Below, piece after piece: positions 20,794 to 54,916 of a DNA stretch of 64,000 nucleotides. The translations under genes were made by a program, and so were the position numbers. Each line of letters begins with the position of its first letter. Position 1 is the first letter of the stretch. The notes below the pieces were generated by a model. The model was not told the origin of the DNA. It saw only the letters and a list, made by a program, of their open reading frames with translations, and did no database searches. Source of the stretch: Candidatus Brocadiia bacterium (lineage in GTDB: Bacteria > Planctomycetota > MHYJ01 > JACQXL01); assembly GCA_041658285.1 (NCBI GenBank), contig JBBAAP010000002.1, positions 119,029-183,028 on the forward strand. The letters are read 5' to 3'.

Positions 20794-21056
20794 ATTCCGT
20801 CTATTTAGCAGAAAATCCAGTTAAGCCCTTCGATTATTTAGGATAAATTTGTCTTAACTGGGCAATCATATTAATCAGCCCTTACTCCGAACTGGCTGGC
20901 AACCCATAGCGTTAAACTGGATTTCCAGAAATACCAATCCAAGGCATAAAAACACCACCCCCCACCCCCTCCGGGAGGACTCCCCTCCCCGTATATCCCC
21001 CCCGGGTTATCTATGGAAGCGGCAAGTGCTTCCTTCGCCTCCAATACAGTAAATCC

Positions 21057-21315
21057 CTTATGCCGGTGGCATAGTATATTTGTGCCACGTACATAATAGC
21101 CTTGTGCCGGTGGCATAGTATACTTGTGCTACGTACATAATAGTCTTGTGCCGGTGGCATAGTATACTTGTGCTACGTACATAATAGTCTTGTGCCGGTG
21201 GCATAGTATACTTGTGCTACGTACATAATAGTCTTGTGCCGGTGGCATAATATACTTGTGCTACGTACATAATTGGCTTATGCCGGTGGCATAGCAGACT
21301 TGTGCCGGTGGCATA
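21057..21315. repeat. Tandem array: five 44-bp units (each a 22+22 A/B dimer) plus two extra A subunits
   Basis: Units start at 21057, 21101, 21145, 21189 and 21233, with extra A subunits at 21277 and 21299. A=cttgtgccggtggcatagtata, B=cttgtgctacgtacataatagt. Confidence 0.95.
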
Positions 21316-21487
21316 AACGGTTTAAACCTATAAGGAGAGAGTTGGTTTTTGTATTTTGAAGGCGTGTACACCGAGAGCAAAGCCTCCCGCAGGGGCAATT
21401 TTTGTCACTTTGCCCTCAAAAACCCCTGATTTTAGGCAAAAAGTGACGATTTTTGTCATTTCTGATGTGTGTAGCGCCTGCAGGGTG

Positions 21488-22927
21488 TCACCGGACCCGT
21501 TGATGGCAAGCAACAGAAGGTTTACCCATATGATTAAGATAGTTAAAATAAAACTTGTTGTGCTTAAGCCAGCTTTTCACAATTCCCTTGCCGGCAAATT
21601 TCATAAAAGAACGATAAAAAGATGCCCTATGCGGTTTTGATGGCATTAGTTTTGTGACAGATGCGACTCTTTCAACGACAGTGTTCAAGGCGTCGTTGAA
21701 TGCGTTTGTGTATGAATAGAAATCGCTGAAGCATTCTATCAAACCGTTTTGCAGTTCGTAAGCGGTCATATTTGTCGGGGTAAACAGGGCGTGCAGCCCG
21801 TCGTATAATTCCCAGTTTTTGTGCAGAATCCTTTTTTCCTCTTCCAGTTTGAAATATGTCTTAGTCCCCGGCAAAGGAGTCAATATCGAGTACTGGACAT
21901 AATCAAGCTTGCTGTCGTGGCAAAAATCAGCCGTCATCTTAAAGACATCTTTGGTATCGGCATCGTTGCCCACGATAAACATGCCGTGCACTTCTATACC
22001 GTTGGCGTGAAAAACCCTGATTGAACGTTTTATGTCATCAACCGTTTGATGTTTGTTCATATCTTTCAGGCTTTGCGGGTTTATGGATTCGAAGCCGATA
22101 TATACTCTTTCACAACCGGCCTGTTTCATCTTGGCGATAAATTCCGGTTTTTTGGTTACTTCGGTTCTTAACTGAGTTGACCATGAGCGGTTAAATTCAT
22201 GTTCAATCATCATGTCAAGGAGCCTGGTTGTCTTTTCCGTATTGACGGCAAAATGGTCGTCCACGAAAAATATATGCCCAGCCCGGTATCTTGAAATCTC
22301 CTCAATAACCCTTTCGGCTGTCTGGGCCCGGTAATCCCTGCCGAACATTTTGGTAACAGAGCAGAAGTTACAATCATAAGGACAACCTCTGGACGTCATT
22401 AACGGCCAGGTGCGTATTTTTTCCCAGTTCCTGATAAGGGTAAAATCGGGAAGAGGCAGACCACCCAAGTTATCCGGCCTTGGCGCATATATCTTTTTAT
22501 CTTTAATCCTGCCGGACAGCACGTCCAGAATGATATTTTCGGCTTCTCCGATAACGACCTGGTCAAAATGCGGGATAACATCGTCCGGAATCATGCTGGC
22601 GTGGATTCCGCCGATGACGGTTCTGGATTCAAGTCCGTGTGATTCCCTGATTGATTTATATTCTTTTGCTATTTCCTTGCCCCGGGTAACCGTGGCGGTT
22701 ATACAGCTTAGGCATAAGATATCAACCGAAGCAAGTTCATCAGGACTGATTGCTCGGCCCGTTATATTCTCGTTAAAAACAGAGACGTCATATCCGGCAT
22801 CCCGCGCTATCGTTGCCAGGTATACCGGTCCCAACAGCGGGATGGTCATAAACCTGGCAAAGACATTGGAATGCGTGCCCATTGGCTCGACGAATAGAAC
22901 TCTTTTATTATACATTTTCTTTCCCAT
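21488..22927 (-). CDS. B12-binding domain radical SAM protein
   Basis: GGIHASM, TSRGCPYDCNFCSV, FFVDDHF, IGFES. Confidence 0.9.
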   Translation of the reverse strand: MGKKMYNKRVLFVEPMGTHSNVFARFMTIPLLGPVYLATIARDAGYDVSVFNENITGRAISPDELASVDILCLSCITATVTRGKEIAKEYKSIRESHGLESRTVIGGIHASMIPDDVIPHFDQVVIGEAENIILDVLSGRIKDKKIYAPRPDNLGGLPLPDFTLIRNWEKIRTWPLMTSRGCPYDCNFCSVTKMFGRDYRAQTAERVIEEISRYRAGHIFFVDDHFAVNTEKTTRLLDMMIEHEFNRSWSTQLRTEVTKKPEFIAKMKQAGCERVYIGFESINPQSLKDMNKHQTVDDIKRSIRVFHANGIEVHGMFIVGNDADTKDVFKMTADFCHDSKLDYVQYSILTPLPGTKTYFKLEEEKRILHKNWELYDGLHALFTPTNMTAYELQNGLIECFSDFYSYTNAFNDALNTVVERVASVTKLMPSKPHRASFYRSFMKFAGKGIVKSWLKHNKFYFNYLNHMGKPSVACHQRVR

Positions 22928-23489
22928 TCTCGCTTTCGTTAGAGCCAGTTAGTCCCGATGCCGCCGAAGGCGGTTCGGGGCGATACTGGGTCTTATCCCG
23001 ATTCACATCGGGGTTCATCTTGTTAAAATAGTCAATAACCAATAAACTTATGCCGAACAATACCAATGACATCGGCCATAATTTATAAGAAATAGTGAAG
23101 ACGAAGTATAAAACCAGGAAGACGGTTATGAACGATATCGCCATATAAATATGCACTTTGCCTTTGGCAAAAACGCTGGTCATAAAAAAACTCATCCCGA
23201 CAATACCCAAAAAAACCGGCCAAAGGTATGACAGAACCGTCCATGAAGTATTATTCAGGCAGAGGAAAAATATGCTCAGCAAAATCATGAATGAACCGAG
23301 CCAGATAAGCGCGGCATCTCTTCTTTGGCGGCTAAAGAACAGTAAAACAAAACCGCTTCCGGTTATAAGAATAAGGGCAGGCCAGAATTTGCTTATGCCG
23401 CTCAGCAGTGAATAGTTTTCAAGCACCAGAACCAGTCCGGCAATTATAAATAGTCCGGCTAAAGCAATGATACTTTTCTTGTTTTTCAA
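22908..23489 (-). CDS. Multi-pass membrane protein (LiaF/DUF5668-like) whose C-terminal tail is encoded by a palindromic repeat
   Basis: Repeated WPxxLI helices; TTG start; tail NPDVNRDKTQYRPEPPSAASGLTGSN lies over the repeat at 22938-23016. Confidence 0.7.
   Translation of the reverse strand: MKNKKSIIALAGLFIIAGLVLVLENYSLLSGISKFWPALILITGSGFVLLFFSRQRRDAALIWLGSFMILLSIFFLCLNNTSWTVLSYLWPVFLGIVGMSFFMTSVFAKGKVHIYMAISFITVFLVLYFVFTISYKLWPMSLVLFGISLLVIDYFNKMNPDVNRDKTQYRPEPPSAASGLTGSNESENGKENV
22938..23016 (+). repeat. Two-hairpin dispersed repeat (family A) inside a CDS
   Basis: GTTAGAGCCAGTTA-[gtcccga..ccgccGAAggcgg..tcggggc]-GATACTGGGTCTTAT-cccgattcacatcggg. Confidence 0.85.
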
Positions 23490-23600
23490 ATCCGACTCCT
23501 GTTGATTTCATTTCCCTTTATTTATCCCAACCGTAGTCCCTAAAAGAATGCTTCGCTAAGGCCGGTAGGCATAGGCCCAGGCTCTATGGTCACCACCTCG

Positions 23601-25370
23601 TTATTCGCCTTTGTCGGGCGGGGCGAAGTAGATAAAATCGCCTATGTAGGAAGACAGCGCTTCCCGGAACAGCCCTTCTTTATCTGCCGTCTTTTCGGTG
23701 ATACTGACCGGTATCAGTGTTTTGTAGGTTGCCGGATACCTCTTGTATGAGCGTTCGGGAATGTTGAATTTGTATTCGATATGGCCGGCTCCGGCCACGA
23801 CGATTACCTGTGATGCCGGGTTGTCGGCGGCTTTAAGGTAGTTGGCTATGGCCTCGCCGAAGGTTTCGTCCCAGACGCATTGCAAAACATACATCCGGTC
23901 TTCGTTGAACTTGGGCGACATCTTTTTCATCTCTTCAAATGACTTCATCACGAACTCGCGGTGCGCCTTATTGGAGGTGTCTATGTCTTTGGCAATAAGC
24001 TTCTGCTCGGCCGGAGTCAGTTTATCCCAGCCCTCGTCAACAAGCTTGTTCTTTATCTCTTTTTCCACGTTCAATCCCAGCAGTTTCAGGCCGTTCTCTT
24101 TGGCGTAGCGGACTAATCCGACATAATACAGCTCATACCATTCGTTGCTGAATCCTGCCCTGACCGCTTTATCAAACTCAGATTCGGTGATTTTTCCGGC
24201 GATATAATCGTCGCAGACCTGCTGTTTGGAACGGTACAGGAACTCCATTGCCAGAACGGCCTTGGGATTCTTCTGGGCCAGGCTTTCGAGGACCTTTTCC
24301 TGGAATTTGTGGTGAACCGAATTTGTATGCGATTCGGCCACATAAACAACCCGGATATCCTTAAGCCGTTCTATCAAAACATCATAATCCAGCACCTCAA
24401 ACGTGTCCAAATCAACGTATTTATTATACAATTCCGGTATTTTAAGCGATGCCAGCTTGACGACCGCCTTTGAAATCACTTCTTCCTCTGACGCACTCAA
24501 CTGAGCCCTTCTTTTAAACTGGGTTAGCTCGCTATCGGTGCCTGTTCCGGCGCTGACGGCCTTAGTGTCCGGCGCCGCCAGCAGTTCTTTTGCCTCGGGC
24601 GGAATAACTATCGCATCTCCCTTGTCATAATTTGAATAATTCATCTCCATCTTCATTTTTACGGCGGCTCCGGCCGCTTTCCCCTCCATATCAAGAATGA
24701 CCTTGGATAAAAGATAGGCGTCCTTGGCCACCCACATCTTTATTGTCACCTTGTCAAACTTGCCGGCCATACCCTGCACGCCGCTGCCGCCGAATGCTTT
24801 GTCGTTGATTGTCTCGGGGTTAACCGTCAGTTCTATGACCTGATAGGATTTGTCTCCTATTTTTTCCTCTTTGCTGATTAAGGCATCCTGGTTGATTCCC
24901 GGGATTTGGTTCAGGCCGGCCGGGAACATCTCCGCGGCTAATATCATAGACTTCTGGGCCGGCGATGCCAATGCCCACTTTTTGTCGGCCGGATCCATCA
25001 TAACCGCGTTTGTGTCATCTGAATAATATTCAAACGGCGTTTTTGTCAATCCGTTGCTCCCATCGATTAATTCGCCATGAGCATAGATATCCTTGTCATA
25101 TCTGGCGCTGTCGCAGTCAAGAATCCTGATATTCATTCCCATTACACCCATCTCCATCACTATTTTTGACGAGACGCTTTTAGCGTCGGCAAAGTTTTCC
25201 ACTGCCCTCTTGATAACACCCTTAGCATCCTTGGGCGCTTCTTTGACAACCGGCGCCACCGGCGGTGGCGGCACGATGGGTTTTTGGGCTCCGGATTGGC
25301 ATCCGGCGAATAATGCCGTTGATACTATCAGGGTGCATATTAACAAGTAGCGCTTATTGCCTGGTTTCAT
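23601..25370 (-). CDS. Lipoprotein: N-terminal LppX/LolA-like beta-sheet domain fused to a ChaN-family (haem-uptake/TIKI-like) domain
   Basis: Lipobox LFAGC; C-terminal VVYVAESHT..HHKFQ, LAMEFL, VVAGAGHIEY..IPER match ChaN; the N-domain call is tentative. Confidence 0.65.
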   Translation of the reverse strand: MKPGNKRYLLICTLIVSTALFAGCQSGAQKPIVPPPPVAPVVKEAPKDAKGVIKRAVENFADAKSVSSKIVMEMGVMGMNIRILDCDSARYDKDIYAHGELIDGSNGLTKTPFEYYSDDTNAVMMDPADKKWALASPAQKSMILAAEMFPAGLNQIPGINQDALISKEEKIGDKSYQVIELTVNPETINDKAFGGSGVQGMAGKFDKVTIKMWVAKDAYLLSKVILDMEGKAAGAAVKMKMEMNYSNYDKGDAIVIPPEAKELLAAPDTKAVSAGTGTDSELTQFKRRAQLSASEEEVISKAVVKLASLKIPELYNKYVDLDTFEVLDYDVLIERLKDIRVVYVAESHTNSVHHKFQEKVLESLAQKNPKAVLAMEFLYRSKQQVCDDYIAGKITESEFDKAVRAGFSNEWYELYYVGLVRYAKENGLKLLGLNVEKEIKNKLVDEGWDKLTPAEQKLIAKDIDTSNKAHREFVMKSFEEMKKMSPKFNEDRMYVLQCVWDETFGEAIANYLKAADNPASQVIVVAGAGHIEYKFNIPERSYKRYPATYKTLIPVSITEKTADKEGLFREALSSYIGDFIYFAPPDKGE

Positions 25371-25494
25371 ATTAGTTCCTTTCTTATTATGTTATTTGAC
25401 ATATCTCATTACCCGATAACCGGGCAAGGAATGATTCACACATTACTTAATCGCACCTTGGAAGTCAATTTATTTGTCTAATGTGAATAGTGAC

Positions 25495-25653
25495 ATCCCG
25501 ATTATTTACTAACCTATGTCCCGAAAGAATTCGGGACATAGTATCATATTGAAGTAATCGGGATTACACGGCCGTAAGCCTCTCGATCAGATTTTATCTG
25601 TTCTGCGAGGCTAACGGACATTATTCACGCCACTACGTGAATAACCCGTGTAA
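25495..25653 (-). repeat. Large nested multi-hairpin intergenic element related to family A
   Basis: atcccgatta/taatcgggat encloses tatgtcccgaa/ttcgggacata; ttacacgg/ccgtgtaa encloses two further hairpins. Confidence 0.7.
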
Positions 25654-25720
25654 AGAATCTTCCCTAAAAATACGATAACAATATCTGGCTCGTTAACAAT
25701 CAAGCAACCTAATGTGAAAG

Positions 25721-26074
25721 GTGTTGTTTATGTCTAAAACTCACATACCGGATAATATCGAAGTAGTTGATACCGAACTGGATTTATCGGCGGCCAGATT
25801 GTTGGAATACCTGAACTCCAATAAGAACGCGGCCGTGAAAGAGCTCCTGGCCCATTACGAGGAAATCATCTCTCCCAAACTGCAAGGTCTATTGCCGCCG
25901 GAATCAGCGGCGCGGCTGGGCATCCGCATGACACTGGGCCGGCTCCAACGCCAGGGCAAAGTCAAAGTCCTGCGCGACGCCGATACCGGCCAGGACCGGG
26001 TCTGCCTGGCAGAAGACCTGGTTTTGAGGAATAAATGGATATCCGCACTGAAAAGCTCACCTAACGTGCTTTAA
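25721..26074 (+). CDS. Hypothetical protein (possibly winged-helix)
   Basis: Fills the gap with no overlap; no recognisable motif. Confidence 0.55.
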   Translation: MLFMSKTHIPDNIEVVDTELDLSAARLLEYLNSNKNAAVKELLAHYEEIISPKLQGLLPPESAARLGIRMTLGRLQRQGKVKVLRDADTGQDRVCLAEDLVLRNKWISALKSSPNVL

Positions 26075-26080
26075 AACCTA

Positions 26081-26122
26081 ACCACAAAGAATACTAAATA
26101 ATGACTTTGGCGCCTTTGTGGT
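26081..26122. repeat. ACCAC(A/G)AA(G/A) inverted-repeat element (family C)
   Basis: accacaaag...ctttgtggt; related sequences at 50587-50614 and 56414-56481. Confidence 0.6.
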
Positions 26123-26156
26123 GAATAATTTCTGTCTACTATTATTAACCGTTTTC

Positions 26157-27437
26157 TTACTCCGGAGCGGGTTGTTCCGCAGGCGTCTGACTGGACAGGC
26201 TGTAACTCAACCTAGTTTCCGGTATGGATTTGATGAATTCCAGGCCCTCGGGTGTGTAATAGCGGTGCCGGATGTTCCGGGTCAGAACCAGATTCCCATC
26301 CTCGCCTTTAAGAAAGTTGAGCTGGCGCAGTTGCTCATTCTTGTATTCCTTAAAATCGCTGTAGAAGATATCGATATAAGCTGACAGGCTGTTATTGGTC
26401 GGTCCGAACCCCTGTGCGTAGAGGTATTTCTGTTCGAGCACGTCGCCGACGTCTATCATATTCTGATAGCGCTTGTTCTTATCCTTGGCCAACATCTTCA
26501 TAATGATTAATGACAACGATTCGGGAATGTCGGTCCGGAACTGATGCGGCGGAATGATTTCACGGGACATCTGGTCTATGACCCAGTTCCTTTGCTCTTC
26601 AAATGACAACCGCCGGGGATAGGTGTAGGGATGGATGCCGGTAATGAGCTCGTAGGCCACCAGGCCGAGCGAAAAGATGTCGGTGCGAGTGTCTATACCC
26701 TCCTGCTTAATCTGTTCCGGCGACATATAGGCCAGTTTGCCGGCGAAGAATTTCATTTCCTCTTGCGTCTGGGCGGCCACGCCAAAGTCGGACAGCTTGC
26801 AGACTCCGTGGTTGTTAATCAGAATATTACCGGGCGAGATGTCGCGGTGGATGATATACTGGTGCGCATAACCCAACGCCCGGCAGATGCGGCTGATGAT
26901 GAAGCCGGTCAGTTCGCATGGTATAAGCAGATGTTTTTCCAGGTGGTCGCTATAAAGGGTCTGCAAGTCCGGCCCCTGGACATAGTCCATGGCGATGAAA
27001 TAAAGCTTGCGATTGTCCGGCGCGTGTGACGGATGTATTTTATGAGTAGACAAGACCGGCTGTTTCCGGTTAAGCATCTGCCCTATCGGAGAAAAATGGT
27101 TGTAACGCCGCTGATCCTTGGGCTGACCGGCTGAAAGAGAATCTATCTCGCCGCGAAACGACGGCGGTAACGACGATACCGGTAATGACTCCATACCGTA
27201 AGTCTTGACGATATTTTCATGCCGAAGCATAGTGGCAATATTGGCTTCGTGCTTTAGCCGACTTTCGTGCTCTTTGGAAAGCGTCTTAACCGTTTTCAGA
27301 ACGACATAGTCATTGACGCCTTCGGTATGCTTTTCGGCCAGGAAAACTATACCCATACCGCCCCGGCCTATCTCGTCTACCAACGTATAGGTGGAAGTGG
27401 AATGGAAAGAAATACCTGCTAATTCGCTGTTACTCAT
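26157..27437 (-). CDS. Cytoplasmic Hanks-type Ser/Thr protein kinase
   Basis: [39 protein letters not shown]; start set at the ATG overlapping the lysS stop. Confidence 0.92.
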
Positions 27438-28914
27438 TAGATTTAACTTCACTCACGTGCCGTAATGTCGGAAAAAGAATCACATCCCTGATGGATTTAC
27501 TGTTGGTCAGAACCATAACCAGGCGATCGATACCGATACCCAGCCCACCGGCCGGCGGCATGCCGTAGGACAGGGCCGTGACGTAGTCTTCGTCCAGCTT
27601 GACGGCGCCTTCGGCCTTTTCTTTGAGCTGGCATTCGAAGCGGGACTGTTGGTCGGCCGGGTCGTTAAGCTCGCTGAAGGCGTTGGCCAGTTCCATACCG
27701 GTCATAAACAGTTCGAACCGCTCGGCCAGCTCGGGATTGTCACGCTTGGATTTGGTCAGCGGACATATAGCCGCCGGGTAATCGGTCACGAATATCGGGC
27801 CAACCAGGTGCGGTTCGACAAATTTTTCAAACAGGTCGTTGGCCACCTTGGGAAAAGAGGCATTCTTCGGTATTGCTATGCCGGACTCCCCGGCTTTTTT
27901 GAGCACCGCTTCCTGATCGTGGTAATCCACGCCGCAGTGCTGGTTAAACAGTTCTATGTAAGGCTTCCTCTGCCAGGGCGGAGTCAGGTCCAACGCCGTA
28001 TCATTGAAGGTTATCTTAAGCGAAGGCAAGACTTTTTTGGCTATCTCGGTAACCAGGTATTCGGTCAGGTTCATCATATCGTTGTAATCGGCGTAAGCCT
28101 GGTAAATTTCTATCATAGTAAACTCGGGATTATGATGCGTGGATATGCCTTCGTTGCGGAAGTTGCGGTTGATTTCGTAGACCCTTTCCATACCGCCGAC
28201 CAACAGGCGCTTGAGGTAGAGCTCCGGTGCAATCCTGAGGTATAAATCCATATCCAGCGCGTTGTGATGGGTAATGAACGGCCGGGCCGCGGCACCGCCC
28301 GGTATCGTGTGCATCATAGGCGTTTCCACTTCGACAAAACCTTTGTCGTCCAGGAAATAGCGCAGATACCTGATTATCTGGGTACGATTTAGGAATGTCT
28401 GGAGCACCTCGGGGTTGGAAATAAGGTCAAGATAGCGCTGGCGATAGCGGATTTCGACATCCTTGAGTCCGTGCCACTTTTCAGGCAAAGGCAATAATGA
28501 CTTGGTCAACAATGTTAATGCGGTGACCAGTATGGTTATCTCGCCGGTCTTGGTCTTGAACAAGTCGCCCTTGATGCCGATGATATCGCCGATATCGAGA
28601 AGCTCGAAAACCCGATATTGTTTTTCGTCTATCTTATCTTTCTTGATGTATAGCTGAACCCTACCGGACCAGTCACGCAGGTCCAGGAAAGCGGCCTTGC
28701 CGTGGCCGCGGATGGCCATAAGCCGCCCGGCTACGGTTACAGGCTTGCTTGCGGGCTGGCCAATATCAGCATGAGCCTGGCCTTCGATTTTGGCAAAATC
28801 CTCGAGCACTTCCTTAATCGAAACGCTGTCCGGAAAAGAGTAGGTAAAGGGATTGATACCCAATTCTTTAAGCGCAGCCAATTTCTTGAGTCGTTCTTCG
28901 TGGTAAGTATTCAC
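27430..28914 (-). CDS. lysS: Lysine--tRNA ligase (class II)
   Basis: [47 protein letters not shown]. Confidence 0.98.
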
Positions 28915-28915
28915 T

Positions 28916-29503
28916 TTATATCGCTCCCATCATTCTCAATAATCTTTTGGCGTTCTGATACAATTCGCTGTCGGGCTTGGTCAGCCTGAGTACACTACAC
29001 AGGTAAGGCATCGCCTTACGGTTCTGGCCCATCTGGCAATAGTGGTTGCCCAGGTTGTAATAAGGCCTGGGGTTATAGGGATTTTCCTGTATTTCCTTTT
29101 CATACTCCGAGACTGTTATACGGGCGAATTCGCTGTCGGTAATTTCGGACGACAAAGGATAATCAACCACATTGCTGCCGTCAACACCCATGCTGCCAGC
29201 CGTTACGCCGCCAAGATGGGACAGAAAATCCAAAGCCTTTTCCGGTTGGTCAAGCTTGGCATAGGCCATAATCAGTCCGTTCCGGGCGTCGGTATACTGA
29301 GAATCGAGCTCCAACGCTTTCTGGAATGAATTTGCCGCGGACTGGTAGTCGTTGTTGGTGTTCATCATCTGCTGGCCCATCTGGTAATACTGCTGGGCCA
29401 TGGCTACCGGAGTCAGTACGGCGCTGGCGGCGGCTCCGCCGACTCCAACACAGCCGGGCAAACAAGCCAGCACGGCGATGATTAACAGGCATATAAATTT
29501 CAT
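28916..29503 (-). CDS. TPR-repeat lipoprotein
   Basis: Lipobox LPGC; [10 protein letters not shown] and [12 protein letters not shown]-like segments. Confidence 0.75.
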
Positions 29504-29569
29504 AGGGCTATGGTTTATATTAAAAGCGGTGCCCTGTCAAGAATTAAATAGGCCAGGCGATCCGAACGG

Positions 29570-30307
29570 TTAAATATCCGATTGCGCCTTAATATCACCC
29601 TTGATGCCGATGGTAATTTCGCGAGCCGGTATCTTCTTTTCTGACGACTCAAGCGCCTTTTTGGTGATATGAACCAGGCCGGAACAGCACGGCACCTCCA
29701 TATGCAAAACGGTGATTGACTTGATTTTAGCTGTCTTGAATATGTCCGTAAGTTTTTCCAGGTAATACTGGCTGTCGTCGAGTTTTGGGCAGGCGATAAT
29801 CAGCGATTTACCGCTAATGAAGTCCTGGTGGAAATCGGCATAGGCATAGGAGGTACAGTCTGCCGCAATGACCAAGTCGCGATTCTGCAGAAACGGCGCG
29901 GTGGACGGCACCAGCATCAACTGGATAGGCCAATTAGCCAGCCGGGAATCGGGCCGGACAGAGAACGGAGCGGTGGCTGACGGACAACGCTCATTGCTCA
30001 AATCCCTAACCTGGCTGGACGGGCAACCGCAGGGCAAAGTCTTGGCGGCCGCCTGCTCCTTATGTTTTTCGGCCGCGGCCAGGCTAAATGGAGACACCTC
30101 GCGATTTTCGATAGTAATAGCGCCTTCGGGGCATTCGCCGATGCAAGCACCTAAGCCGTCGCAGTAGGTCTCGCTGACCAATTTAGCCTTGCCGTTGACT
30201 ATTTTCAGAGCCCCTTCAACACAACCAGTAACGCATTGACCACAACCGGTGCATTTGGACTCGTCTATCTTAACTATCTTTCTTTTTGTCTTCATCGCGT
30301 CTTTCAT
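29570..30307 (-). CDS. 2x[4Fe-4S] ferredoxin-domain iron-sulfur protein
   Basis: CTGCGQCVTGC, CDGLGACIGECP, LANWPIQL, CPKLD, MEVPCC. Confidence 0.88.
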   Translation of the reverse strand: MKDAMKTKRKIVKIDESKCTGCGQCVTGCVEGALKIVNGKAKLVSETYCDGLGACIGECPEGAITIENREVSPFSLAAAEKHKEQAAAKTLPCGCPSSQVRDLSNERCPSATAPFSVRPDSRLANWPIQLMLVPSTAPFLQNRDLVIAADCTSYAYADFHQDFISGKSLIIACPKLDDSQYYLEKLTDIFKTAKIKSITVLHMEVPCCSGLVHITKKALESSEKKIPAREITIGIKGDIKAQSDI

Positions 30308-30608: not shown

Positions 30609-30703
30609 AAATCACCTCATCATTCAACGAATAACGGTTATCATAAATAGATTTTACGAGGCTGTGACGGAATGTCAATATAAATTTTCCAATAATTCTT
30701 ATT

Positions 30704-30739
30704 TTTTTGTAGTAAAATGGCCTCGCCGATCATATATAT
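30704..30739 (+). repeat. Perfect 36-bp direct repeat, copy 1 (putative ECF promoter)
   Basis: tttttgtagtaaaatggcctcgccgatcatatatat, identical to 31395-31430. Confidence 0.9.
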
Positions 30740-30811
30740 ATTAGGAAAGGAGATAAATGGCTATCCTAAAGGAACTAATCGCCTGCCAACCATTAAGAAA
30801 GGAGTAAATAT

Positions 30812-44705: not shown

Positions 44706-44718
44706 ATTTAACCTTTTT

Positions 44719-44793: not shown

Positions 44794-44815
44794 CACATTT
44801 TAACAAATACCCTTT

Positions 44816-46024
44816 TTATTCTACTATCTTGGTAACAACGCCGGCGCCAACAGTCCTGCCGCCTTCACGAATAGCGAACCGCAGCTTATCTTCCATGGCT
44901 ATCGGTGTCATCAGCTCCACGTTCAAACTTACGTTCTCGCCCGGCATTACCATTTCCACCTTGGCCGGAAGCTTGACCTCGCCGGTAACATCCGTGGTCC
45001 TGAAGTAGAACTGGGGCCTGTATCCGGAGAAAATCGGCGTATGGCGTCCACCTTCATCCTTAGACAGGATGTACACCTCACACTCAAATTTAGTGTGCGG
45101 CGTGATTGTGCCCGGAGCGGAAACAACCATCCCGCGTTCCAAATCATCCTTTTCAACGCCACGCAGCAAGATGCCGACATTGTCGCCGGTAATGCCCTCA
45201 TCCAGCAGTTTATTGAACATTTCTATACCGGTAACAACGCTCTTCCTTATTTCCTTGGAAAATCCGACAATGTCAACCGGATCATTAATCTTTACTCTCC
45301 CGCGTTCGATACGGCCGGTACCAACCGTACCGCGCCCTTTGATGCTGAATACATCTTCAATCTGCATCAGGAACGTCTTATCCACTTGGCGAATCGGTTC
45401 CGGAATATTAGCATCAATCGCATCCATTAACTGCCAGATTGGGCCGCAGTTGGGGCATTCCTTCTTGGCGCATAGGCATTCCAAAGCCTTCATTGCCGAA
45501 CCTTTGATAATGGCAATCTTGTCGCCCGGGAACTGAAATTTAGTCAAGAGTTCCCTAACCTCCACCTCAACCAACTCTAAAAGTTCCGGATCAGTGACTA
45601 AATCGCACTTATTCAAGAATACCACCAGCGCCGGCACCTGAACCTGTCGGGCCAGAAGCACGTGTTCCCTTGTCTGGGGCATCGGGCCGTCTGCCGCGGA
45701 AACCACTAGAATCGCGCCGTCCATCTGGGCCGCGCCGGTAATCATGTTCTTAATGTAATCCGCATGTCCCGGGCAGTCGATGTGTGCATAATGGCGTTTA
45801 TCTGTCTGATATTCAACGTGCGCCACCTGAATCGTCAGAATCTTGGTTTCACCGCGTTGCTCACCGCCCTTGGCTATTTCCGCATAAGTCCTGGCGTTTG
45901 ATAATTTATGCTTGGCTAGGACGTTTGTAATCGCGCTGGTTAAACTGGTTTTGCCGTGATCAATGTGCCCGATGGTTCCCACATTCAAGTGTGGTTTTGT
46001 CCGATCAAATTTTTCCTTGGCCAT
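44816..46024 (-). CDS. tuf: Elongation factor Tu
   Basis: [37 protein letters not shown]. Confidence 0.99.
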
Positions 46025-46059
46025 AAAAGCTCCTTTCGATATCTAATTTTTACTTTCTT

Positions 46060-46132
46060 AGCTGTTGACGGGAATTGCACCCGTGACCTCGTCCTTACCA
46101 AGGACGTGCTCTTCTAGCTGAGCTACAACAGC
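46060..46132 (-). tRNA. tRNA-Thr(GGT), no encoded CCA
   Basis: Cloverleaf: acceptor GCTGTTG/CAACAGC, anticodon loop TTGGTAA, T-loop TGCAATT. Confidence 0.93.
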
Positions 46133-46162
46133 GTTTATTTCAATACGCTGTTCGAACGCAAA

Positions 46163-46190
46163 ACTATAGCAGTTTAATATTTAGTGTCAA
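46163..46190 (-). promoter_or_regulatory. Internal sigma70 promoter for tRNA-Thr(GGT)-tuf
   Basis: TTGACA-16 nt-TATAGT with an extended TG on the minus strand. Confidence 0.55.
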
Positions 46191-46274
46191 GTTATTTATA
46201 TATTTTGTATTAAATTCCTGACTTTAAAATTCAGCCGTGATATCCCTCCCCTAAAACCATCATTTTATCTAAGT

Positions 46275-46350
46275 TGGAGCGGCGGACCGGGGTCGAACCG
46301 GCGACCGTCTGCTTGGAAGGCAGATGTTCTACCAATTGAACTACCGCCGC
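46275..46350 (-). tRNA. tRNA-Gly(TCC)
   Basis: Acceptor GCGGCGG/CCGCCGC, loop CTTCCAA, CCA encoded. Confidence 0.96.
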
Positions 46351-46353
46351 TCT

Positions 46354-46485
46354 TACTCCCTGTTAGCTATCGCCTGAATATTTTCAGGAGATAGCGTTAC
46401 AGCGGAGTTAGACCCCGCACCTATCTTTCCGGGATAGGTGCGGGGTATAAGAAATTCTAAGGCTCACGTTTCGCCAAGAATTTCT
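46354..46485 (+). repeat. Cluster of hairpins in the tRNA-Gly/tRNA-Tyr spacer (family A unit plus accccgcacc/ggtgcggggt IR plus agaaattct/agaatttct IR)
   Basis: ctgtTA-[gctatc..gatagc]-GTTacag, followed by two further inverted repeats (IRs). Confidence 0.65.
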
Positions 46486-46488
46486 AAA

Positions 46489-46571
46489 TGGGCAGGGAGG
46501 GATTCGAACCCCCGAAGCTAAAAAGCAACAGATTTACAGTCTGTCCCCTTTGGCCGCTTGGGTACCTGCCC
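46489..46571 (-). tRNA. tRNA-Tyr(GTA), no encoded CCA
   Basis: Acceptor GGGCAGG/CCTGCCC, loop CTGTAAA, long variable arm. Confidence 0.95.
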
Positions 46572-46599
46572 CGTTATCCCGCCTTAGCAGTATAACGGG
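46570..46599. mobile_element. Miniature CCCGTTA...TAACGGG element (family B) overlapping the tRNA-Tyr 5' end
   Basis: cccgttatcccgccttagcagtataacggg. Confidence 0.6.
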
Positions 46600-46622
46600 G
46601 CATGCCCAAAACAAGTTCTATA

Positions 46623-46694
46623 AGCTGGGAGCGGGATTTGCACCCGCAACCGCCGGTTTACAAAACCGGAGCTCCGCTGTTGAGCTATCCCAGC
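46623..46694 (-). tRNA. tRNA-Thr(TGT), no encoded CCA
   Basis: Acceptor GCTGGGA/TCCCAGC, loop TTTGTAA, T-loop TGCAAAT. Confidence 0.93.
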
Positions 46695-46726
46695 CCCGTT
46701 ATCCCGCCAGAGGGCGGGATAACGGG
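46695..46726. mobile_element. Miniature family B element abutting the tRNA-Thr(TGT) 5' end
   Basis: cccgttatcccgcc-agag-ggcgggataacggg, a perfect 14-bp IR. Confidence 0.65.
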
Positions 46727-46764
46727 GCCGGCATTCTCAATCTTAGTTATCCTATTCCGCCTTA

Positions 46765-46793
46765 CTGATACCAAACAGGTTATTACCTGTCAA
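46765..46793 (-). promoter_or_regulatory. sigma70 promoter of the tRNA-tuf operon with an overlapping palindrome
   Basis: TTGACA-17 nt-TATCAG; ACAGGT-TATT-ACCTGT palindrome at 46775-46790. Confidence 0.5.
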
Positions 46794-46818
46794 TATTTTT
46801 GCTTATCCTGATAGGATT

Positions 46819-47799
46819 CTATATCTTTTGAGACCGGCCCTTTAAAGTCGCCCATTCCGGGCACAACATCAAATGCCACCATAACAAAGCAAAGTAAACC
46901 ACCAACATCTGCCTTATACGCCTTACCAAACAAAATGTCAGTATGCACCCTGCCAGATTCAGCGCAAAACCAAGAATTATCTTTATCGGCTTTAACAGCC
47001 GGAAGACTAAATATATCCACAGTGCATGATGTTTCCGGTAAAATTTATACAACGAATTGAGGTATTCTATTTTAGCCGCCACCACAATCTTCTTTTTGGA
47101 CTGTCCTTGAATGTGATAAATGCCGGACTCCGGCACAAACCAGACCTGACAACCTTTGCCAGTCATGCGCCGGCACCAATCGGTTTCTTCCAGAAAAAGG
47201 AAATAATTCTCATCCAGCATACCGACCTCTTTTATCGCCTCCTCCCGCACCATCATAGCCGCGCCGATGACCGATTCCACCTCAATAGGGCTCGAATACG
47301 CCTGCCGCTTGCTGGGATACCGCCCCGGCGCTAGAATCCGTAACAAGCTTTTGCCCAAAAGCTCGCTTTCCAATCCCGGGATATTATCGAACGAATGCTG
47401 CCGCGAACCGTCCTGATTGAGCAGTTGTCCGGTTATAATACCCGCCCTAGGGTTGGCATCCATAAACCTAACCAGGCTTTCCAAAGACCGTTCGGTCAGC
47501 AAGATATCGCTGTTAAGAATAAAATAATATTTAGCCGGCCTGTCACGCAAACCGGCATTGACCGCTCCGGCAAACCCAATATTGCGTTCCAGCCGGATAA
47601 TTTCAGCAGTCGGGTAATACTGGCGAACGGCCTCGATACTGCCGTCGGATGAGCCGTTATCAACAACCGTAACCAGGCATCCGGATGTTTTAACCTTGTT
47701 AAAAACGGAGTTCAGGCACCCCAAAAGCAGGTCTTTGGTGTTGTAATTAATAACAATGATGGATACTTCAGGCACGGCTAATGACAGTATAGGGCGCAA
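46819..47799 (-). CDS. GT2-family glycosyltransferase
   Basis: VSIIVINYN, VVDNGSSDGS, NIGFAGAVN, ILNSD, YFLFLEETDWC. Confidence 0.92.
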   Translation of the reverse strand: MRPILSLAVPEVSIIVINYNTKDLLLGCLNSVFNKVKTSGCLVTVVDNGSSDGSIEAVRQYYPTAEIIRLERNIGFAGAVNAGLRDRPAKYYFILNSDILLTERSLESLVRFMDANPRAGIITGQLLNQDGSRQHSFDNIPGLESELLGKSLLRILAPGRYPSKRQAYSSPIEVESVIGAAMMVREEAIKEVGMLDENYFLFLEETDWCRRMTGKGCQVWFVPESGIYHIQGQSKKKIVVAAKIEYLNSLYKFYRKHHALWIYLVFRLLKPIKIILGFALNLAGCILTFCLVRRIRQMLVVYFALLWWHLMLCPEWATLKGRSQKI

Positions 47800-47856
47800 T
47801 TCAATAATTCACTGCGAATTATATACTGCGCCCTATTTTCTTCCGGGAATTACAGG

Positions 47857-48060
47857 TTAATCTTCCAGGACAAAGGTAATGCTCATATGAACCCGATACT
47901 CGATTATTTTGCCGTTTTCCACCTTAACATTAGTTTTGGTCACTTCCGCGCCGGTGATACCGCGCAGAGTCTTGGTTGCCCTCCTGATGCCTTCCTGTAC
48001 CGCCTCGGTAATCCCTTTGGGTGATGACGCCACTATCTGTGTCACTCTTGCTACTGCCAT
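47857..48060 (-). CDS. Dodecin-family protein
   Basis: MAVARVTQIVASSPKGITEAVQEGIRRATKTLRGI..EYRV.M.ITF; SD AAGGAG. Confidence 0.9.
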   Translation of the reverse strand: MAVARVTQIVASSPKGITEAVQEGIRRATKTLRGITGAEVTKTNVKVENGKIIEYRVHMSITFVLED

Positions 48061-48073
48061 ATTCAACTCCTTT

Positions 48074-48300
48074 TAGAAACTGTTAGGGATTTAGCCATGA
48101 AATAGCTAAAGACCGTTACAGTTTCTTATCCCGACTATTCCGTCGGGGTTCTAGAGCCACTTAAACATATTGACACACAGTGGCAATATGCTTTTAGTGG
48201 GTCTTATCCAGTTATGATAGCATATCAGAACTGGGTTCTTGCCAGTTAGGATGGTCCCGATGTGACATCGGGACCAACCGTTACTGAGCCTTATCTAATC
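48074..48300 (+). repeat. Three tandem family A units (78 bp, 87 bp, partial)
   Basis: Units start at 48074, 48152 and 48239, with covarying outer stems AAACTGT/ACAGTTT, CCACT/AGTGG and CAGT/ACTG. Confidence 0.85.
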
Positions 48301-48374
48301 AGCCTCCTTTTTACCTTATCATCTTTATCTTGTCAAGAAACCAGGAATATTTTATCCATACTGCCAGATAACAA

Positions 48375-49307
48375 ATGCTTAATCTATTAGAATTAGTCAC
48401 TGCCGCCCTGTTTATCGGAGTTGTATTCTCCGTATTCACCGCCGGATTCATCGTCATCATCGCCAAGCGATGTTTTATCAAGTCGTCACCTGATAAAAAA
48501 CCCGATTTCCTGGATAAGCCTAAAATCAAGTTTACCATCATCGCCTTAGCCATCATAGGCATCGTCTGCATCCTTTACGGCTACTTTATCGAACCGAACT
48601 GGATAAAGGTTACCAATCTTAAATTAGTTTCTCCTAAAATAGGCGGCGGAGGCAAAACCGTCCGGATTGTCCATATCTCGGATTTGCATATCGAATCTGA
48701 AGGCCGGCGCGAGCTGGCCGCGCCGGAACTGATAAATAGCCAAAACCCTCAAATTATTATCCTGACCGGCGATTACCTCAACGACGAAAAAGGCCGTCTC
48801 TATCTGGCAAACTTCCTATCCAAACTCAAAGCGCCCTACGGCATCTATGCCGTGCCGGGTAATTTCGAGTGGCGCTACAAAAGCGATGACATCCTGGCCG
48901 CAAACGGAGTCCTGTCAGGCAACAACATCAGCATCAACCTGGATAACCTTAATGTATGCCTGTATCTCTGCGGACTGAATAGTCCAACCCTACCCGAAAC
49001 GCTCGATCCTAAGCAGTATAACATATTTGTATTCCACAGCCCAGACCTGATACCCGAAGCCACGGCAAAGGGATTTGACCTGTATCTGGGCGGGCATACG
49101 CACGGCGGCCAGGTGCGTCTGCCCTTTTACGGCGCCCTGATTACATTCTCTAAATATGGCAAAAAATACGAGATGGGTTATTATAAGGAAAACCACATGA
49201 ACGCCTACATCAACAGCGGGCTGGGTATGGAAGGCGGGTTTGCGCCCAGGGTGAGATTCCTGTCCCGGCCGGAAATCGCGATCATAGATATTGTGACACC
49301 AGAATGA
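48375..49307 (+). CDS. Membrane-anchored metallophosphoesterase (YkuE-like)
   Basis: HISDLH, LTGDY, VPGN, HSPD, GHTHGGQ, RPEI. Confidence 0.9.
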   Translation: MLNLLELVTAALFIGVVFSVFTAGFIVIIAKRCFIKSSPDKKPDFLDKPKIKFTIIALAIIGIVCILYGYFIEPNWIKVTNLKLVSPKIGGGGKTVRIVHISDLHIESEGRRELAAPELINSQNPQIIILTGDYLNDEKGRLYLANFLSKLKAPYGIYAVPGNFEWRYKSDDILAANGVLSGNNISINLDNLNVCLYLCGLNSPTLPETLDPKQYNIFVFHSPDLIPEATAKGFDLYLGGHTHGGQVRLPFYGALITFSKYGKKYEMGYYKENHMNAYINSGLGMEGGFAPRVRFLSRPEIAIIDIVTPE

Positions 49308-50029
49308 ATAATTATCAGTCTGCTTGGCAAGAAAAGGCAAATCTTCTGCCGGATGAGATATTCAGCCGGATAAACCCGGCTGTTTTAACCTCGGCATTAA
49401 AGCTCAGGGCCTTCATTTCCGGCCCCGGCGCCGAGTTATTCCTGCCCCGGCTGGCCAACACCAAGGTCTTCCTGGTCAACCCGCTGGCGCCGCCGCCGGA
49501 GGGACATACGGCCACCGTGCTCAAAGGCGAGCCACTAACCAAACTCGGCGTATTCCCGCCGGAAACTTTCCACCTGGTCGTAAGCCTCTGGGATATCCAG
49601 ACTAAACCGGCAGAGGCGTTCAAAACCATATACAAATCGCTCAAGAAAACAGGATTTGCCGGCATCGTTACTCTCCAGGACAACGCCCCGAAAGTCCCCT
49701 TAAACATATTCAAAAGCATATTACGCCGCCACCGCGATTGGTCCTTGCGGATGTTCGAATCGGAATTGCCGCCGTCCAAAGACCATCTCCGGGCCATGCT
49801 TGACAAATCCGGCTTCGGCGATGTCCGGGTCTGGAAAGACGCCATCACCTGCGACTATAAAACGGCACAAGATGTCTACGATGAACTTACCCAAAAGACC
49901 AGCGGTCTGTTTAGGGATGAAATCCTTCCGGCGGTGCGGAACACCATCAGGCAGGAGTTCCTGAAAGAAATGTCCAGCCAATCGCTTCAGGTCAAATACG
50001 ATTTCCTCGGCGCGGTCTGCCGCAAGTAA
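49304..50029 (+). CDS. Hypothetical protein, divergent SAM-methyltransferase-like fold
   Basis: ETFHLVVS..LKKTG and GFGDV segments resemble a class I MTase C-terminal half; no clear motif I. Confidence 0.45.
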   Translation: MNNYQSAWQEKANLLPDEIFSRINPAVLTSALKLRAFISGPGAELFLPRLANTKVFLVNPLAPPPEGHTATVLKGEPLTKLGVFPPETFHLVVSLWDIQTKPAEAFKTIYKSLKKTGFAGIVTLQDNAPKVPLNIFKSILRRHRDWSLRMFESELPPSKDHLRAMLDKSGFGDVRVWKDAITCDYKTAQDVYDELTQKTSGLFRDEILPAVRNTIRQEFLKEMSSQSLQVKYDFLGAVCRK

Positions 50030-50037
50030 CCGCCCGT

Positions 50038-50556
50038 CTAGCGGTCAAAATAAATGCTCTTGCCCGAAGCCGAAATCGGTATGCCCAGGACGTAATCCGA
50101 ATCTATCAGCTTCATCTGTCGGGCAATAACACCAACACGATACATAATCCGGCTGTCGGCGTTAAGGATACCGGCCGTTTTGGCGGCCGAGCCCAGGGCG
50201 ATGCCCAAATCCAGCAGGCGGTAAGCGCAGTAAGGCCCCTTAAATTCCGGACCTTCCTTGACAGCCGGCAATTTGGCGCATTCAGGATAGCCGCAGGCGC
50301 CGCAGTTAAGCCCGACCGTTTTGGAATCCTTCAACCCGACCAACACCAGCGCGTCCGACTTGGCGATGTTATTGCCGTCCCGGTCGAAGTTCTTCTTTCC
50401 GGTCTTGGCGCCGTAGGTAATCATTTCACGGGACAGATTGGCCAGCACCTGGCCGGTAAGTATTTCTATTTTGACGAAATCCTGCCCGGCCGACTTGGGC
50501 GCGGTCCGGGCCGCCACGGCCATCATCTGGGCAATGGTTTCAAGGTATTCTTTCAT
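50038..50556 (-). CDS. Ferredoxin-domain-containing protein (DUF2148-like)
   Basis: MAVAARTAPK, FDRDG, NCGACGY..C, C....DLGIALGSA. Confidence 0.8.
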   Translation of the reverse strand: MKEYLETIAQMMAVAARTAPKSAGQDFVKIEILTGQVLANLSREMITYGAKTGKKNFDRDGNNIAKSDALVLVGLKDSKTVGLNCGACGYPECAKLPAVKEGPEFKGPYCAYRLLDLGIALGSAAKTAGILNADSRIMYRVGVIARQMKLIDSDYVLGIPISASGKSIYFDR

Positions 50557-50640
50557 GGTAAATATCCTTTCTTAGTGAATCCATATAACCACAAAGGCAC
50601 AAAGAACACAAAGAATTATTATATTTTAATTTTCCATATT

Positions 50641-50680
50641 AAAAAGAAAAGGGCGGATTCAAATCAATGAATCCGCCCTC
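50641..50680 (-). terminator. Terminator of the 23S-5S operon
   Basis: gggcggattc/gaatccgccc stem plus a T-run on the minus strand. Confidence 0.8.
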
Positions 50681-50690
50681 GAGTATAGCA

Positions 50691-50811
50691 CCCCGGCAGT
50701 GACCTACTTTCCCACCGAATAAATCATCAGTAGTATCATTGGCCCCAAGGGCTTAACGGCCGTATTCGAGATGGGAACGGGTGTGGCCCCTTGGGAATTG
50801 GACCACCGGGA
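50691..50811 (-). rRNA. rrf: 5S rRNA
   Basis: CCCGGTGG...ACACCCGTTCCCATCTCGAATAC..GTTAAGC..GGGAAAGTAGGTCACTGCCGGG. Confidence 0.93.
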
Positions 50812-50912
50812 GTTAAAAATAAAACGTACAATACGCTGGCAGCTTTAAGCAGCTATTACTGCCAGTCATAGCCGGCTTTAACAGCCGACTATATGGGCTC
50901 AAGGATAAAAAA

Positions 50913-53946
<3,034 letters not shown>

Positions 53947-53988
53947 TTTTTTATCCTAAAGCCCATTGTTATTGCACTAATTACCAAA

Positions 53989-54000
53989 TTTTCAAAGAAC
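53989..54000 (-). promoter_or_regulatory. rrn boxA antitermination site
   Basis: GTTCTTTGAAAA in the 23S leader. Confidence 0.75.
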
Positions 54001-54064
54001 GACCTTAACTGCCGGGACTATTCCCCTGTTACAAGGAATAATTTTATCGGCAAACAAGTCTGGT

Positions 54065-54093
54065 ACATTAGCAAACGGAAAAGTCCTTGTCAA
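54065..54093 (-). promoter_or_regulatory. sigma70 promoter of the 23S-5S operon
   Basis: TTGACA-17 nt-TAATGT with an AT-rich upstream region. Confidence 0.8.
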
Positions 54094-54345
54094 GTATTTT
54101 TATTGTTTTATAAAAAAATATATTAACCGCGGATTTTACGGGTTTAATAAATTTACTATTATACATTTAATCAGACAAATATGCAGTTTGTGTTTATTCA
54201 TGATTTTATAGATAACACCTTATGCGAATCACGATCAAAACCATTCAAAATTTTAGGGGCTTGACTGTACTTACCCTGAAACAAACCAAAATCTGCCCTG
54301 CAAAAATGGCATATCCACTATGAAATGCCAAGGTGTACAGAAATT

Positions 54346-54697
54346 GATTTATAGTAGTTATGAATAAGATTTATGATGGTTACGGACAGAATTCATAGTG
54401 ATTATGAATAAGATTTATACTAGTTATGGGCATGATTTATGATGCTTATGAATAAGATTTATAGTGGTTATGGACAGGATTTATAATGGTTATGAACAGA
54501 ATTTATGATGGTTATGAATAAAACTTATAGTAGTTACGAACAGGATTTATACTGGTTATAAATAAAACTTATAGTGGTTATGAACAGGATTAATAATGGT
54601 TATGAATAAGATTTATAGTGGTTATGAACAGGATTTATAATGGTTACGAATAAGACTTATAATGGTTATTAACAAGATTTATAGTGGTTATGGATAA
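54346..54697. repeat. Tandem array of sixteen degenerate 22-bp units
   Basis: Consensus gatttatagtggttatgaa(c/t)a(g/a); units every 22 bp from 54346 to 54676 with no indels. Confidence 0.95.
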
Positions 54698-54916
54698 GTA
54701 TCCAGGTGGTATAGGGGTAGGGTACCCCCACCCCCTTGAGCCAAATATGCATTATATTAGGATTTAGGCGCGAAAAAAAACTTATTTGCCGAAAACAGCA
54801 CATGGGAAAGGGCTAAATTACTGCGTTATTATGCCAGAGACAGCATGCCAAAGGCAGACAAGAATTCCGTTTCGAGAGAACAAAATCCAGTGGTCTATCC
54901 CGCCTACCACCCCTAC

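Follow-up and report, generated by a model that had tools for sequence, protein, structure and literature searches.

A possible family of non-coding elements with G/C-rich heads and 22-bp-phased arrays in an uncultured Candidatus Brocadiia bacterium

Direct repeats of 22 bp make up the iterons of plasmids, with 7 x 22 bp in the R6K gamma origin and 4 x 22 bp in pPS10, besides the incA/incC control arrays of P1, and sopC of the F plasmid comprises 12 x 43 bp with an inverted repeat in each. The repetitive extragenic palindromic (REP) sequences and bacterial interspersed mosaic elements (BIMEs) of Enterobacteria and Pseudomonas are mosaic clusters of palindromic units (PMC3733652), and bacterial interspersed minisatellites have been treated in an overview (PMC6749651). 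Eukaryotic transposon-derived satellites have conserved ends around expandable internal tandem repeats (PMC6947457). Here we report on two arrays of 22-bp units, array 1 and array 2, in a 64-kb stretch of DNA (the window; contig JBBAAP010000002.1) from an uncultured bacterium of a landfill metagenome. No description of such arrays was found in the literature.

We consider that arrays 1 and 2 may be members of one multi-copy family of composite non-coding elements with a G/C head, a 22-bp array and, at some members, a leader before the head, in which the register is selected and the element acts as a DNA platform; we put the probability of this reading at about 0.45. The architecture itself is seen directly. 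A head of S-runs joined by TA/TATA and ending in TATA(T)-C-run-(G/T)GG faces a strictly 22-bp-phased array, the unit sequence is specific to each locus, and this genome has several scattered copies of the head, of the leader and of the module behind array 1 (tail 1). The family is so far seen in this lineage only. The modules of the two loci in the window are the following.

Leader-core-like stretch at array 1: 20928-20951, plus strand, GAAATACCAATCCAAGGCATAAAA, abutting head 1 and agreeing with the leader core at 15/24 positions, the best in the 259-nt gap
Head 1: 20954-21006, plus strand, C6-A-C5-TCC-GGGAGG-ACT-C4-T-C4-G-TATAT-C7-GGG, the TATAT-C7-GGG end facing array 1
Spacer from head 1 to array 1: 21007-21056, plus strand, with a hairpin GGAAGC-N7-GCTTCC at 21015-21033 (from sequence), single-copy in the source metagenome
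Array 1: 21057-21320, plus strand, 12 units of 22 bp (= 6 x 44 bp), from Tandem Repeats Finder (TRF) and unit listing
Tail-1 module: 21337-21462, plus strand, a 126-nt dispersed repeat in which two terminator-like hairpins, at 21382-21396 and 21404-21447, each precede a T-run (terminator scan)
Leader module beside array 2: 54740-54814, minus strand, after the DedA-family gene, with a terminator-like hairpin and T8, a 24-nt core and GGCTCAA (terminator scan)
Leader core: 54766-54743, minus strand, the 24-nt TAAATCCTAATATAATGCATATTT within the ~75-nt leader upstream of head 2
Head 2: 54699-54735, minus strand, G5-T-G5-TA-C3-TA-C4-TATA-CCACC-TGG-ATACTTATCC, a G-run/C-run near-palindrome, the TATA-CCACC-TGG end facing array 2
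Array 2: 54346-54698, minus strand, 16 units of 22 bp, TRF period 22/44/66, indels 0%
Tail 2: 54230-54345, minus strand, unique sequence with a hairpin TGGCAT-N12-ATGCCA and then T5 at 54330-54302

The initial annotation had described two arrays of 22-bp period with A/B alternation and with units that do not align, and all of this was borne out. TRF placed the arrays at 21057-21316 and 54346-54698 with 0% indels; the window has no other long array, and neither of the two is crossed by an open reading frame of >=70 aa. Array 1 (period 22/44, 44-mer match 94%) consists of strictly alternating units A (CTTGTGCCGGTGGCATAGTATA) and B (CTTGTGCTACGTACATAATAGT), and unit identity rises from 0.60 at lag 1 to 0.91 at lag 2. 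As A and B have common arms, TGTGC...(G/A)CATA, and differ mainly in a variable centre, both are dyad-symmetric sites (TGTGC-N5-GCATA). The consensus of array 2 on the minus strand is ATAAATC(T/C)T(A/G)TTCATAACCA(T/C)T, at 26% G+C and with the ATAA-type positions invariant in all units. Its unit types follow the order BABABABABBABABA, in which 13/14 neighbours alternate (exact permutation P=0.0023). Across all rotations and both strands, the best alignment between units of the two arrays was 20/44, which 27% of shuffles equalled.

The sequence of array 2 is the same in three assemblies of one sample, and over its 353 bp the strand asymmetry is extreme, with 5% G on the minus strand (5% C on the plus strand). 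The units of array 1 are present in two other metagenomes with 0-3 differences per 74-118 nt. The copy number given for array 1 is that of the assembly, and both ENA contigs and Logan unitigs break inside it, the ENA breakpoints lying at ~21164-21193. As such arrays break short-read assemblies, they are expected to be under-represented in metagenome-assembled genomes.

The likeness between the two loci resides in the head, whose common motif is C4-T(A)-C4-(G)TATA(T)-CC.CC-(G/T)GG and which bears out the proposed inverted orientation of the arrays relative to each other. Head 1 is the densest cluster of G/C-runs in the window. Within the window the 12-mer CCCCCACCCCCT has just two occurrences, 20959-20970 and 54725-54736, and its 11-mer core had no match in 1.8 Mb of control loci. 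The control DNA comprised 160 loci of other organisms, taken from scans of genome contigs with the DedA-family protein and of metagenome contigs with the radical SAM protein, none of them with a 23S gene. The strict head pattern TATA(T)CC.CC(G/T)GG gave three matches in ~109 kb of own-genome sequence (20992 plus, 54713 minus, and 4508 minus in a third locus, L172) and 5 matches per 1.84 Mb of control DNA; the head patterns were partly shaped after the data had been seen, the strict form being derived from arrays 1 and 2 alone. All three matches lie <=60 nt from a 22-bp array and face into it, the third marking the right end of array 3a at L172, and a looser pattern added a match at L172 4141 (plus strand), at the left end of the same array.

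The flanks had been compared by eye. Local alignments under three scoring schemes and eight strand/side combinations, set against dinucleotide shuffles, gave P ~0.23 on the head side and P ~0.63 on the tail side; the lowest P over the eight combinations was ~0.04, at a pairing other than those proposed. The head-side motif was rescued by its recurrence at the third array locus and on a further unitig of the same genome. Nothing comparable was obtained for the other side, where tails 1 and 2 are without significant similarity and the proposed shared motif TGTACACC is an ordinary 8-mer at chance frequency (31 matches in 1.84 Mb of control DNA, ~1 per 59 kb), found 49 bp from array 1 and 7 bp from array 2. 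As most tail-1 paralogs are altered in or beside TGTACACC (21364 G>T, 21368 A>G, 21372 C>T), it is not a conserved feature. Thus, of the idea of one element type with conserved ends around a phase-locked 22-bp array, the head end, the 22-bp phase and the locus-specific units stand, and the tail end does not.

The loci were further compared with the unitigs of the sample's own run, in which the genome has a depth of ~15.5. The first ~30 nt of head 1 (CACCACCCCCCACCCCCTCCGGGAGGACTCCC; start 20954 or 20957 and end 20983 or 20986 by contig) are found letter-perfect where two other long unitigs, of 5.8 kb and 42.5 kb, end, with depths of 15.1 and 15.4 (15.6 here) and with different left-hand sequence. 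The leader at 54740-54814 has three further copies in the source metagenome, two of which continue into C-run heads. The unitig head beside one leader copy reads GGTACTCCCCCTCCCCCCTATACCCCCCCT, which apart from run lengths is the second half of head 1 (ACTCCCCTCCCCGTATATCCCCCCC), and the loci of arrays 1 and 2 are therefore linked through a third. Tail 1 has at least three further copies in unitigs of genome-like depth, with 5-11 differences each, and tail 2 is single-copy in the source metagenome at >=80% likeness.

Some features of the ends are recorded here in their own right. On the minus strand, head 1 (20958-20978) forms a G-rich hairpin followed by TGGTGTTTTT, which the scan labels terminator-like. 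If this terminator is real, transcripts of the radical SAM gene to the right of array 1 would traverse the array before stopping there, transcripts of the Ehr operon to its left would stop at the tail hairpins, and transcription across array 1 would be convergent. Right after the last array 1 unit, GTTTAAACCTATAAGGAGAG (21322-21345) resembles the first array 3a unit, GTTTACCTCTAAGGGGAG, at 16/18 positions with one 2-nt gap; the alignment score is at null level, and the stretch may be a relic unit of another array type or a chance likeness. A likeness of tail 1 to the array 2 leader (hairpin and T-run), with P ~0.04-0.05 among 8 comparisons, was taken as convergence of terminator-like features.

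The third locus was found by a genome walk in another assembly of the same sample, which reached 15 kb upstream of the window start and ~37 kb beyond the other end. It is a 1.2-kb non-coding gap (L172 3880-5084) that extends from a TPR gene to ybaB, ~18 kb past the window end, in which ATACCCCCCGGG, array 3a, a palindromic head, the leader, a second head and array 3b follow one another.

Array 3a: L172, 15 units of TATAGTTTATCTCTATGGGGCG in exact 22-bp register
G/C palindromic head: L172, TACCCCCGGGGGGGTATACCCCTACCCCCCACCGGGGGGTGGG, between array 3a and the leader
Second head: L172, G7...C6TC6, between the leader and array 3b
Array 3b: L172, a short 22-bp array of ~3-4 units

At L172 4612-4635, upstream of the head of array 3b, all 24 nt of the leader core recur unchanged, and the head behind it can be aligned as well (blastn-short score 55, E=3.5e-8). 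At the left end of array 3a the leader core is absent, and this array closes with an inverted head in place of a tail module. Array 3a lacks the A/B alternation that had been taken as a common trait, and the alternation therefore belongs to single arrays and does not characterise the family. Own-genome sequence thus holds four 22-bp arrays in ~116 kb examined, and no comparable array of >=10 units occurs in 1.9 Mb of loci of other organisms, where the nearest is a weak, 55%-matched stretch of 22-bp x 8.7 (L139). We also observed that array 3a is flanked by inward-facing ATAC6-7GGG motifs, resembling terminal inverted repeats, and that its 22-bp register continues into the head.

Two ends of ENA contigs deserve mention beside the walk. 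About 15.1 kb before the window start, a contig ends in GGCGCCATAAGGGCGCCATGGCGC (L166:18540-18607), which is G/C-rich and palindromic and may be another assembly-breaking dispersed repeat. The 470-kb contig k141_567441 (L161) matches perfectly into the 23S gene and then shows 56 differences in the last 250 nt (52928-53180), a chimeric end derived from the 23S of another organism. The ENA assembly was considered as a second strain (99.2% identity) and rejected, being identical to the window except for the chimeric 23S end and carrying no population information.

The case for a selected register is built on substitutions without indels. Array 2 has 35 substitutions against its class consensus and array 3a has 66 against its own, with zero indels in each, so that through ~100 substitutions in the two arrays together the 22-bp register has been kept. 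In bacterial non-coding DNA, indels amount to ~5-10% of substitutions (indel:substitution ~0.05-0.1). At this ratio 5-10 indels would be expected and none is present, and the phase therefore looks selected. We infer from this that the 22-bp register is under selection. The element would act as DNA, in the form of a helically phased row of sites, 22 bp being the length of two turns when DNA is underwound. The array might be coated or wrapped by a DNA-binding or nucleoid protein, with the G/C head as the place where this coat starts or is bounded. Growth and turnover of the arrays probably occur through in-register unequal exchange, which would give rise to the A/B higher-order repeats and to the lost similarity between loci.

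The main rival to this explanation, which we regard as somewhat unlikely, is a selfish or neutral composite repeat. Here a REP/BIME-like leader-plus-hairpin module, or one like the miniature inverted-repeat transposable elements (MITEs), disperses without cellular function, stalling or slippage at G/C runs seeds a minisatellite, and in-register unequal crossing-over keeps the ancestral 22-bp period. Head, leader and tail 1 are indeed dispersed and multi-copy, and some of the copies are 100% identical and therefore suggest recent spread. The elements occupy long intergenic gaps at gene ends, the nearest related operon lacks array 1, recent unequal exchange typically leaves such signs as the A/B higher-order repeats and a 44-mer of 94% identity, and the inward-facing inverted heads around array 3a are like terminal inverted repeats. 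However, the ~100 indel-free substitutions in arrays 2 and 3a are hard to square with neutral decay, and slippage seeded at each locus should yield varied periods, yet 22 bp is found four times. In addition, no transposase or RAYT-like gene was seen in the ~116 kb examined, a genome-wide search not having been made.

That the element works as DNA and not as RNA is favoured by the lack of any sigma-70-type promoter in leader or head in a promoter scan and by the terminator-like hairpin with T8 before head 2; the rRNA and ybaB promoters of this organism are near-consensus. It is also favoured by the dyad-symmetric units of array 1 and by the opposite predicted folding of the arrays, the single strand of array 1 folding far above shuffles (z=-6.3) and array 2 as RNA being less structured than shuffles (z=+2.2). 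We hold it to be improbable that the arrays are non-coding RNA loci, in which a transcript of tandem 22-nt units would start in the leader/head or come from read-through, end at the tail hairpin and T-run, and serve as a sponge or as a source of small RNAs of unit length. Such a transcript would find terminator-like hairpins with T-runs after arrays 1 and 2 in the head-to-array direction, a direction in which the genes around arrays 2 and 3 also run (the convergent genes beside array 1 give no information here), and the leader core contains TATAAT. But this TATAAT has no acceptable -35 or extended -10, the scan finds no promoter on that strand, the leader-like stretch at array 1 has no TATAAT, and a terminator-like site stands before head 2. 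The predicted RNA structure is wholly different between the arrays, and there is no credible Rfam match, the search up to E = 1 giving none for array 1 and two chance-level matches for array 2 (E 0.18 and 0.26), far below gathering scores. Metatranscriptomes with related 23S had nothing that extends upstream beyond the mature end of the 23S, and the array 1 region was not present in any RNA run, which is a gap in the data and not an absence of transcription.

The genes and signals around the two arrays are the following.

Ehr small subunit gene: 19946-20698, plus strand, last gene of an Ehr-type hydrogenase-like operon, left neighbour of array 1
B12-binding radical SAM gene: 21488-22927, minus strand, right neighbour of array 1
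23S gene: 50913-53944, minus strand, in the unlinked 23S-5S operon
Promoter of the 23S-5S operon: 54065-54093, minus strand, TTGACA-17-TAATGT (from sequence), 253 bp downstream of array 2
DedA/VTT-family gene: 54917-55570, minus strand, membrane protein, neighbour of array 2
LivG/LivF-type ABC ATPase genes: 55699-57391, transporter subunits, near array 2

Array 1 occupies a 790-bp gap with convergent genes on both sides. The closest available Ehr operon (small subunit 66% identity) is the same operon and ends without gap or array, from which it follows that this lineage has added array 1. At L081, with the nearest radical SAM relative (79% aa identity), there is neither synteny nor an array. 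The closest named homologues of the Ehr small subunit belong to Sedimentisphaerales/Phycisphaerae and Kiritimatiellia (61-66% identity), which together with the unlinked rRNA genes fits the Planctomycetes-Verrucomicrobia-Chlamydiae (PVC) group. Array 2 lies between the DedA/VTT-family gene and the unlinked 23S-5S operon. The Pfam families of the flanking genes are Complex1_49kDa, Oxidored_q6, Radical_SAM, LiaF, VTT_dom and ABC_tran, and Pfam revealed no Rep, Par, Cas, integrase or transposase gene flanking array 1 or array 2.

That array 2 is placed 253 bp upstream of the 23S promoter may be a coincidence or reflect co-option at this locus. Read alone, array 2 could be a locus-specific upstream element of the 23S-5S promoter, offering phased activator sites or intrinsically bent A/T-rich DNA, much as Fis sites and UP elements do at rrn P1 of E. 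coli, and it would then resemble array 1 only incidentally; we judge this highly improbable. The distance to the TTGACA-17-TAATGT promoter with its A/T-rich UP-like stretch would suit such an element, as would the 26% G+C and the invariant ATAA-type positions of array 2. Against this, similar architecture is found where array 1 lies between convergent genes and where arrays 3a and 3b lie upstream of ybaB, and so is not rRNA-specific, and between array 2 and the promoter there are 250 bp of unique DNA and a terminator-like hairpin. Sites of the GTnAC type for EbfC/YbaB are represented by GTAAC in just 3/16 array 2 units. A DnaA-box reading of TTATCCATA at the array 2 start was rejected, with a single near-match, deviating units and a GC skew without a clear turn. 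As for the promoter region itself (53945-54100), it contains the A/T-rich UP-like stretch and a boxA-like CGTTCTTTGAAAA, and the 23S has a 29-bp processing stem (50893-50921 / 53938-53966).

We give almost no credence to the arrays being a plasmid or phage origin of the iteron type, a remnant like parS or sopC, or the ends of a 33-kb mobile or invertible segment. Such an origin is suggested by the 22-bp period, as in the R6K and pPS10 iterons, by the 44-bp dyad unit, which recalls F sopC, and by the two arrays facing each other across 33 kb. Neither array is adjoined by a Rep, Par or integrase gene, however. The base composition is ordinary, the cumulative GC skew falls throughout without a clear turn, and blastn found no match of either locus among 72,556 plasmids. 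The intervening 33 kb hold tuf, four tRNA genes, the 23S-5S operon and housekeeping genes, and the segment idea was rejected with such core genes inside and more arrays outside.

Several points weigh against the favoured explanation of a selected DNA platform. The pairwise flank alignments of arrays 1 and 2 are not significant, and the leader-core match at array 1 is weak (15/24, P ~0.06-0.10, not significant alone). Among the neighbours of arrays 1 and 2 (Ehr small subunit, B12-radical SAM enzyme, DedA/VTT protein and rRNA) no binding protein was identified, and with unrelated units either a whole set of proteins would be required or a single one that recognises shape or phase. The missing-indel argument assumes independent substitutions and the general indel ratio given above. 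The family members come from one metagenomic population and from short unitigs of two other metagenomes.

A stronger version of the platform, which we find unlikely, is that a PVC/Planctomycetota lineage has a dedicated undescribed chromosomal system, in which leader and G/C head nucleate 22-bp-phased arrays whose units are free to differ by locus. In one form of it, a protein that reads helical phase and not base sequence, for which multi-domain HTH_17 proteins such as the one at L176 are candidates, would polymerise from the head along the array. The resulting nucleoprotein filaments would be regulatory or would mark boundaries of domains, as might be the case before the promoters of the rRNA operon and ybaB. 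In another form, a ruler-like mechanism would make 22-bp units anew beside the head. Of the protein at L176, positions 1-427 encode the C-terminal 142 aa of a 305-aa HTH_17-domain protein (...VGRQWRFKPDEV...), followed by an unannotated ~130-aa domain.

If functional, these elements would be a bacterial cis-element defined by geometry, that is by a fixed two-turn period and a structured cap, and not by common sequence, and no described bacterial repeat class (iterons, REP/BIME, MIRU, CRISPR) is known to work in this way. As array 2 stands upstream of an rRNA promoter and another member upstream of the nucleoid-protein gene ybaB, they could bear on chromosome organisation or growth-rate control in a poorly known phylum. 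If selfish, they would offer a clean prokaryotic case of satellite-like evolution in which the period is kept and the sequence is not.

The view of the initial annotation that the arrays cannot be assigned to iterons, parS, clustered regularly interspaced short palindromic repeats (CRISPR) or MITEs is reasonable, with no Rep/Par/Cas gene nearby, no plasmid match and no Rfam family. As regards MITEs, whole elements are not repeated, only modules are, the flanks of array 1 are not linked by an inverted repeat and neither are those of array 2, and inverted head motifs are found at array 3a alone. With iterons the arrays have in common direct 22-bp repeats in strict phase, presumably for regular helical siting of a multimeric protein, but they are chromosomal, with several loci per genome and 12-16 units, and lack a rep gene, a DnaA box cluster, an A/T-rich unwinding element and plasmid similarity. 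Array 1, with 6 x 44 bp and dyad-symmetric sites, is similar to sopC and its lattice suits protein spreading or wrapping, whereas parA/parB-type genes are not nearby and the units differ by locus. An A/T-rich conserved leader on one side, strict periodicity and several loci per genome recall CRISPR; the units, however, are contiguous without spacers, and there are no cas genes in the window and no Rfam/CRISPR-type repeat.

Among chromosomal repeats, the mycobacterial interspersed repetitive unit-variable number tandem repeat (MIRU-VNTR) loci are likewise non-coding tandem arrays of fixed unit length among housekeeping genes, but they have a common unit sequence, whereas here only the period and the flanking head are common. 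The REP/BIME elements are similar in being intergenic, often at gene 3' ends, with dispersed short G/C-rich hairpin modules in mosaics, two alternating unit types and terminator-like links. In a BIME, however, the unit is itself a dispersed palindrome in alternating orientation, and neither a GTAG/CGTC tag nor a RAYT gene was seen here in the ~116 kb examined; in our elements the heads, as dispersed G/C near-palindromes, and the leaders are what is dispersed, and the tandem 22-bp units are direct and locus-specific. The eukaryotic transposon-derived satellites belong to another domain of life, and mobility and a transposase are not known for the present family. They resemble it in their conserved terminal modules around an internal array that expands and diverges by locus, a likeness to which array 3a, with inverted heads on both sides, comes closest.

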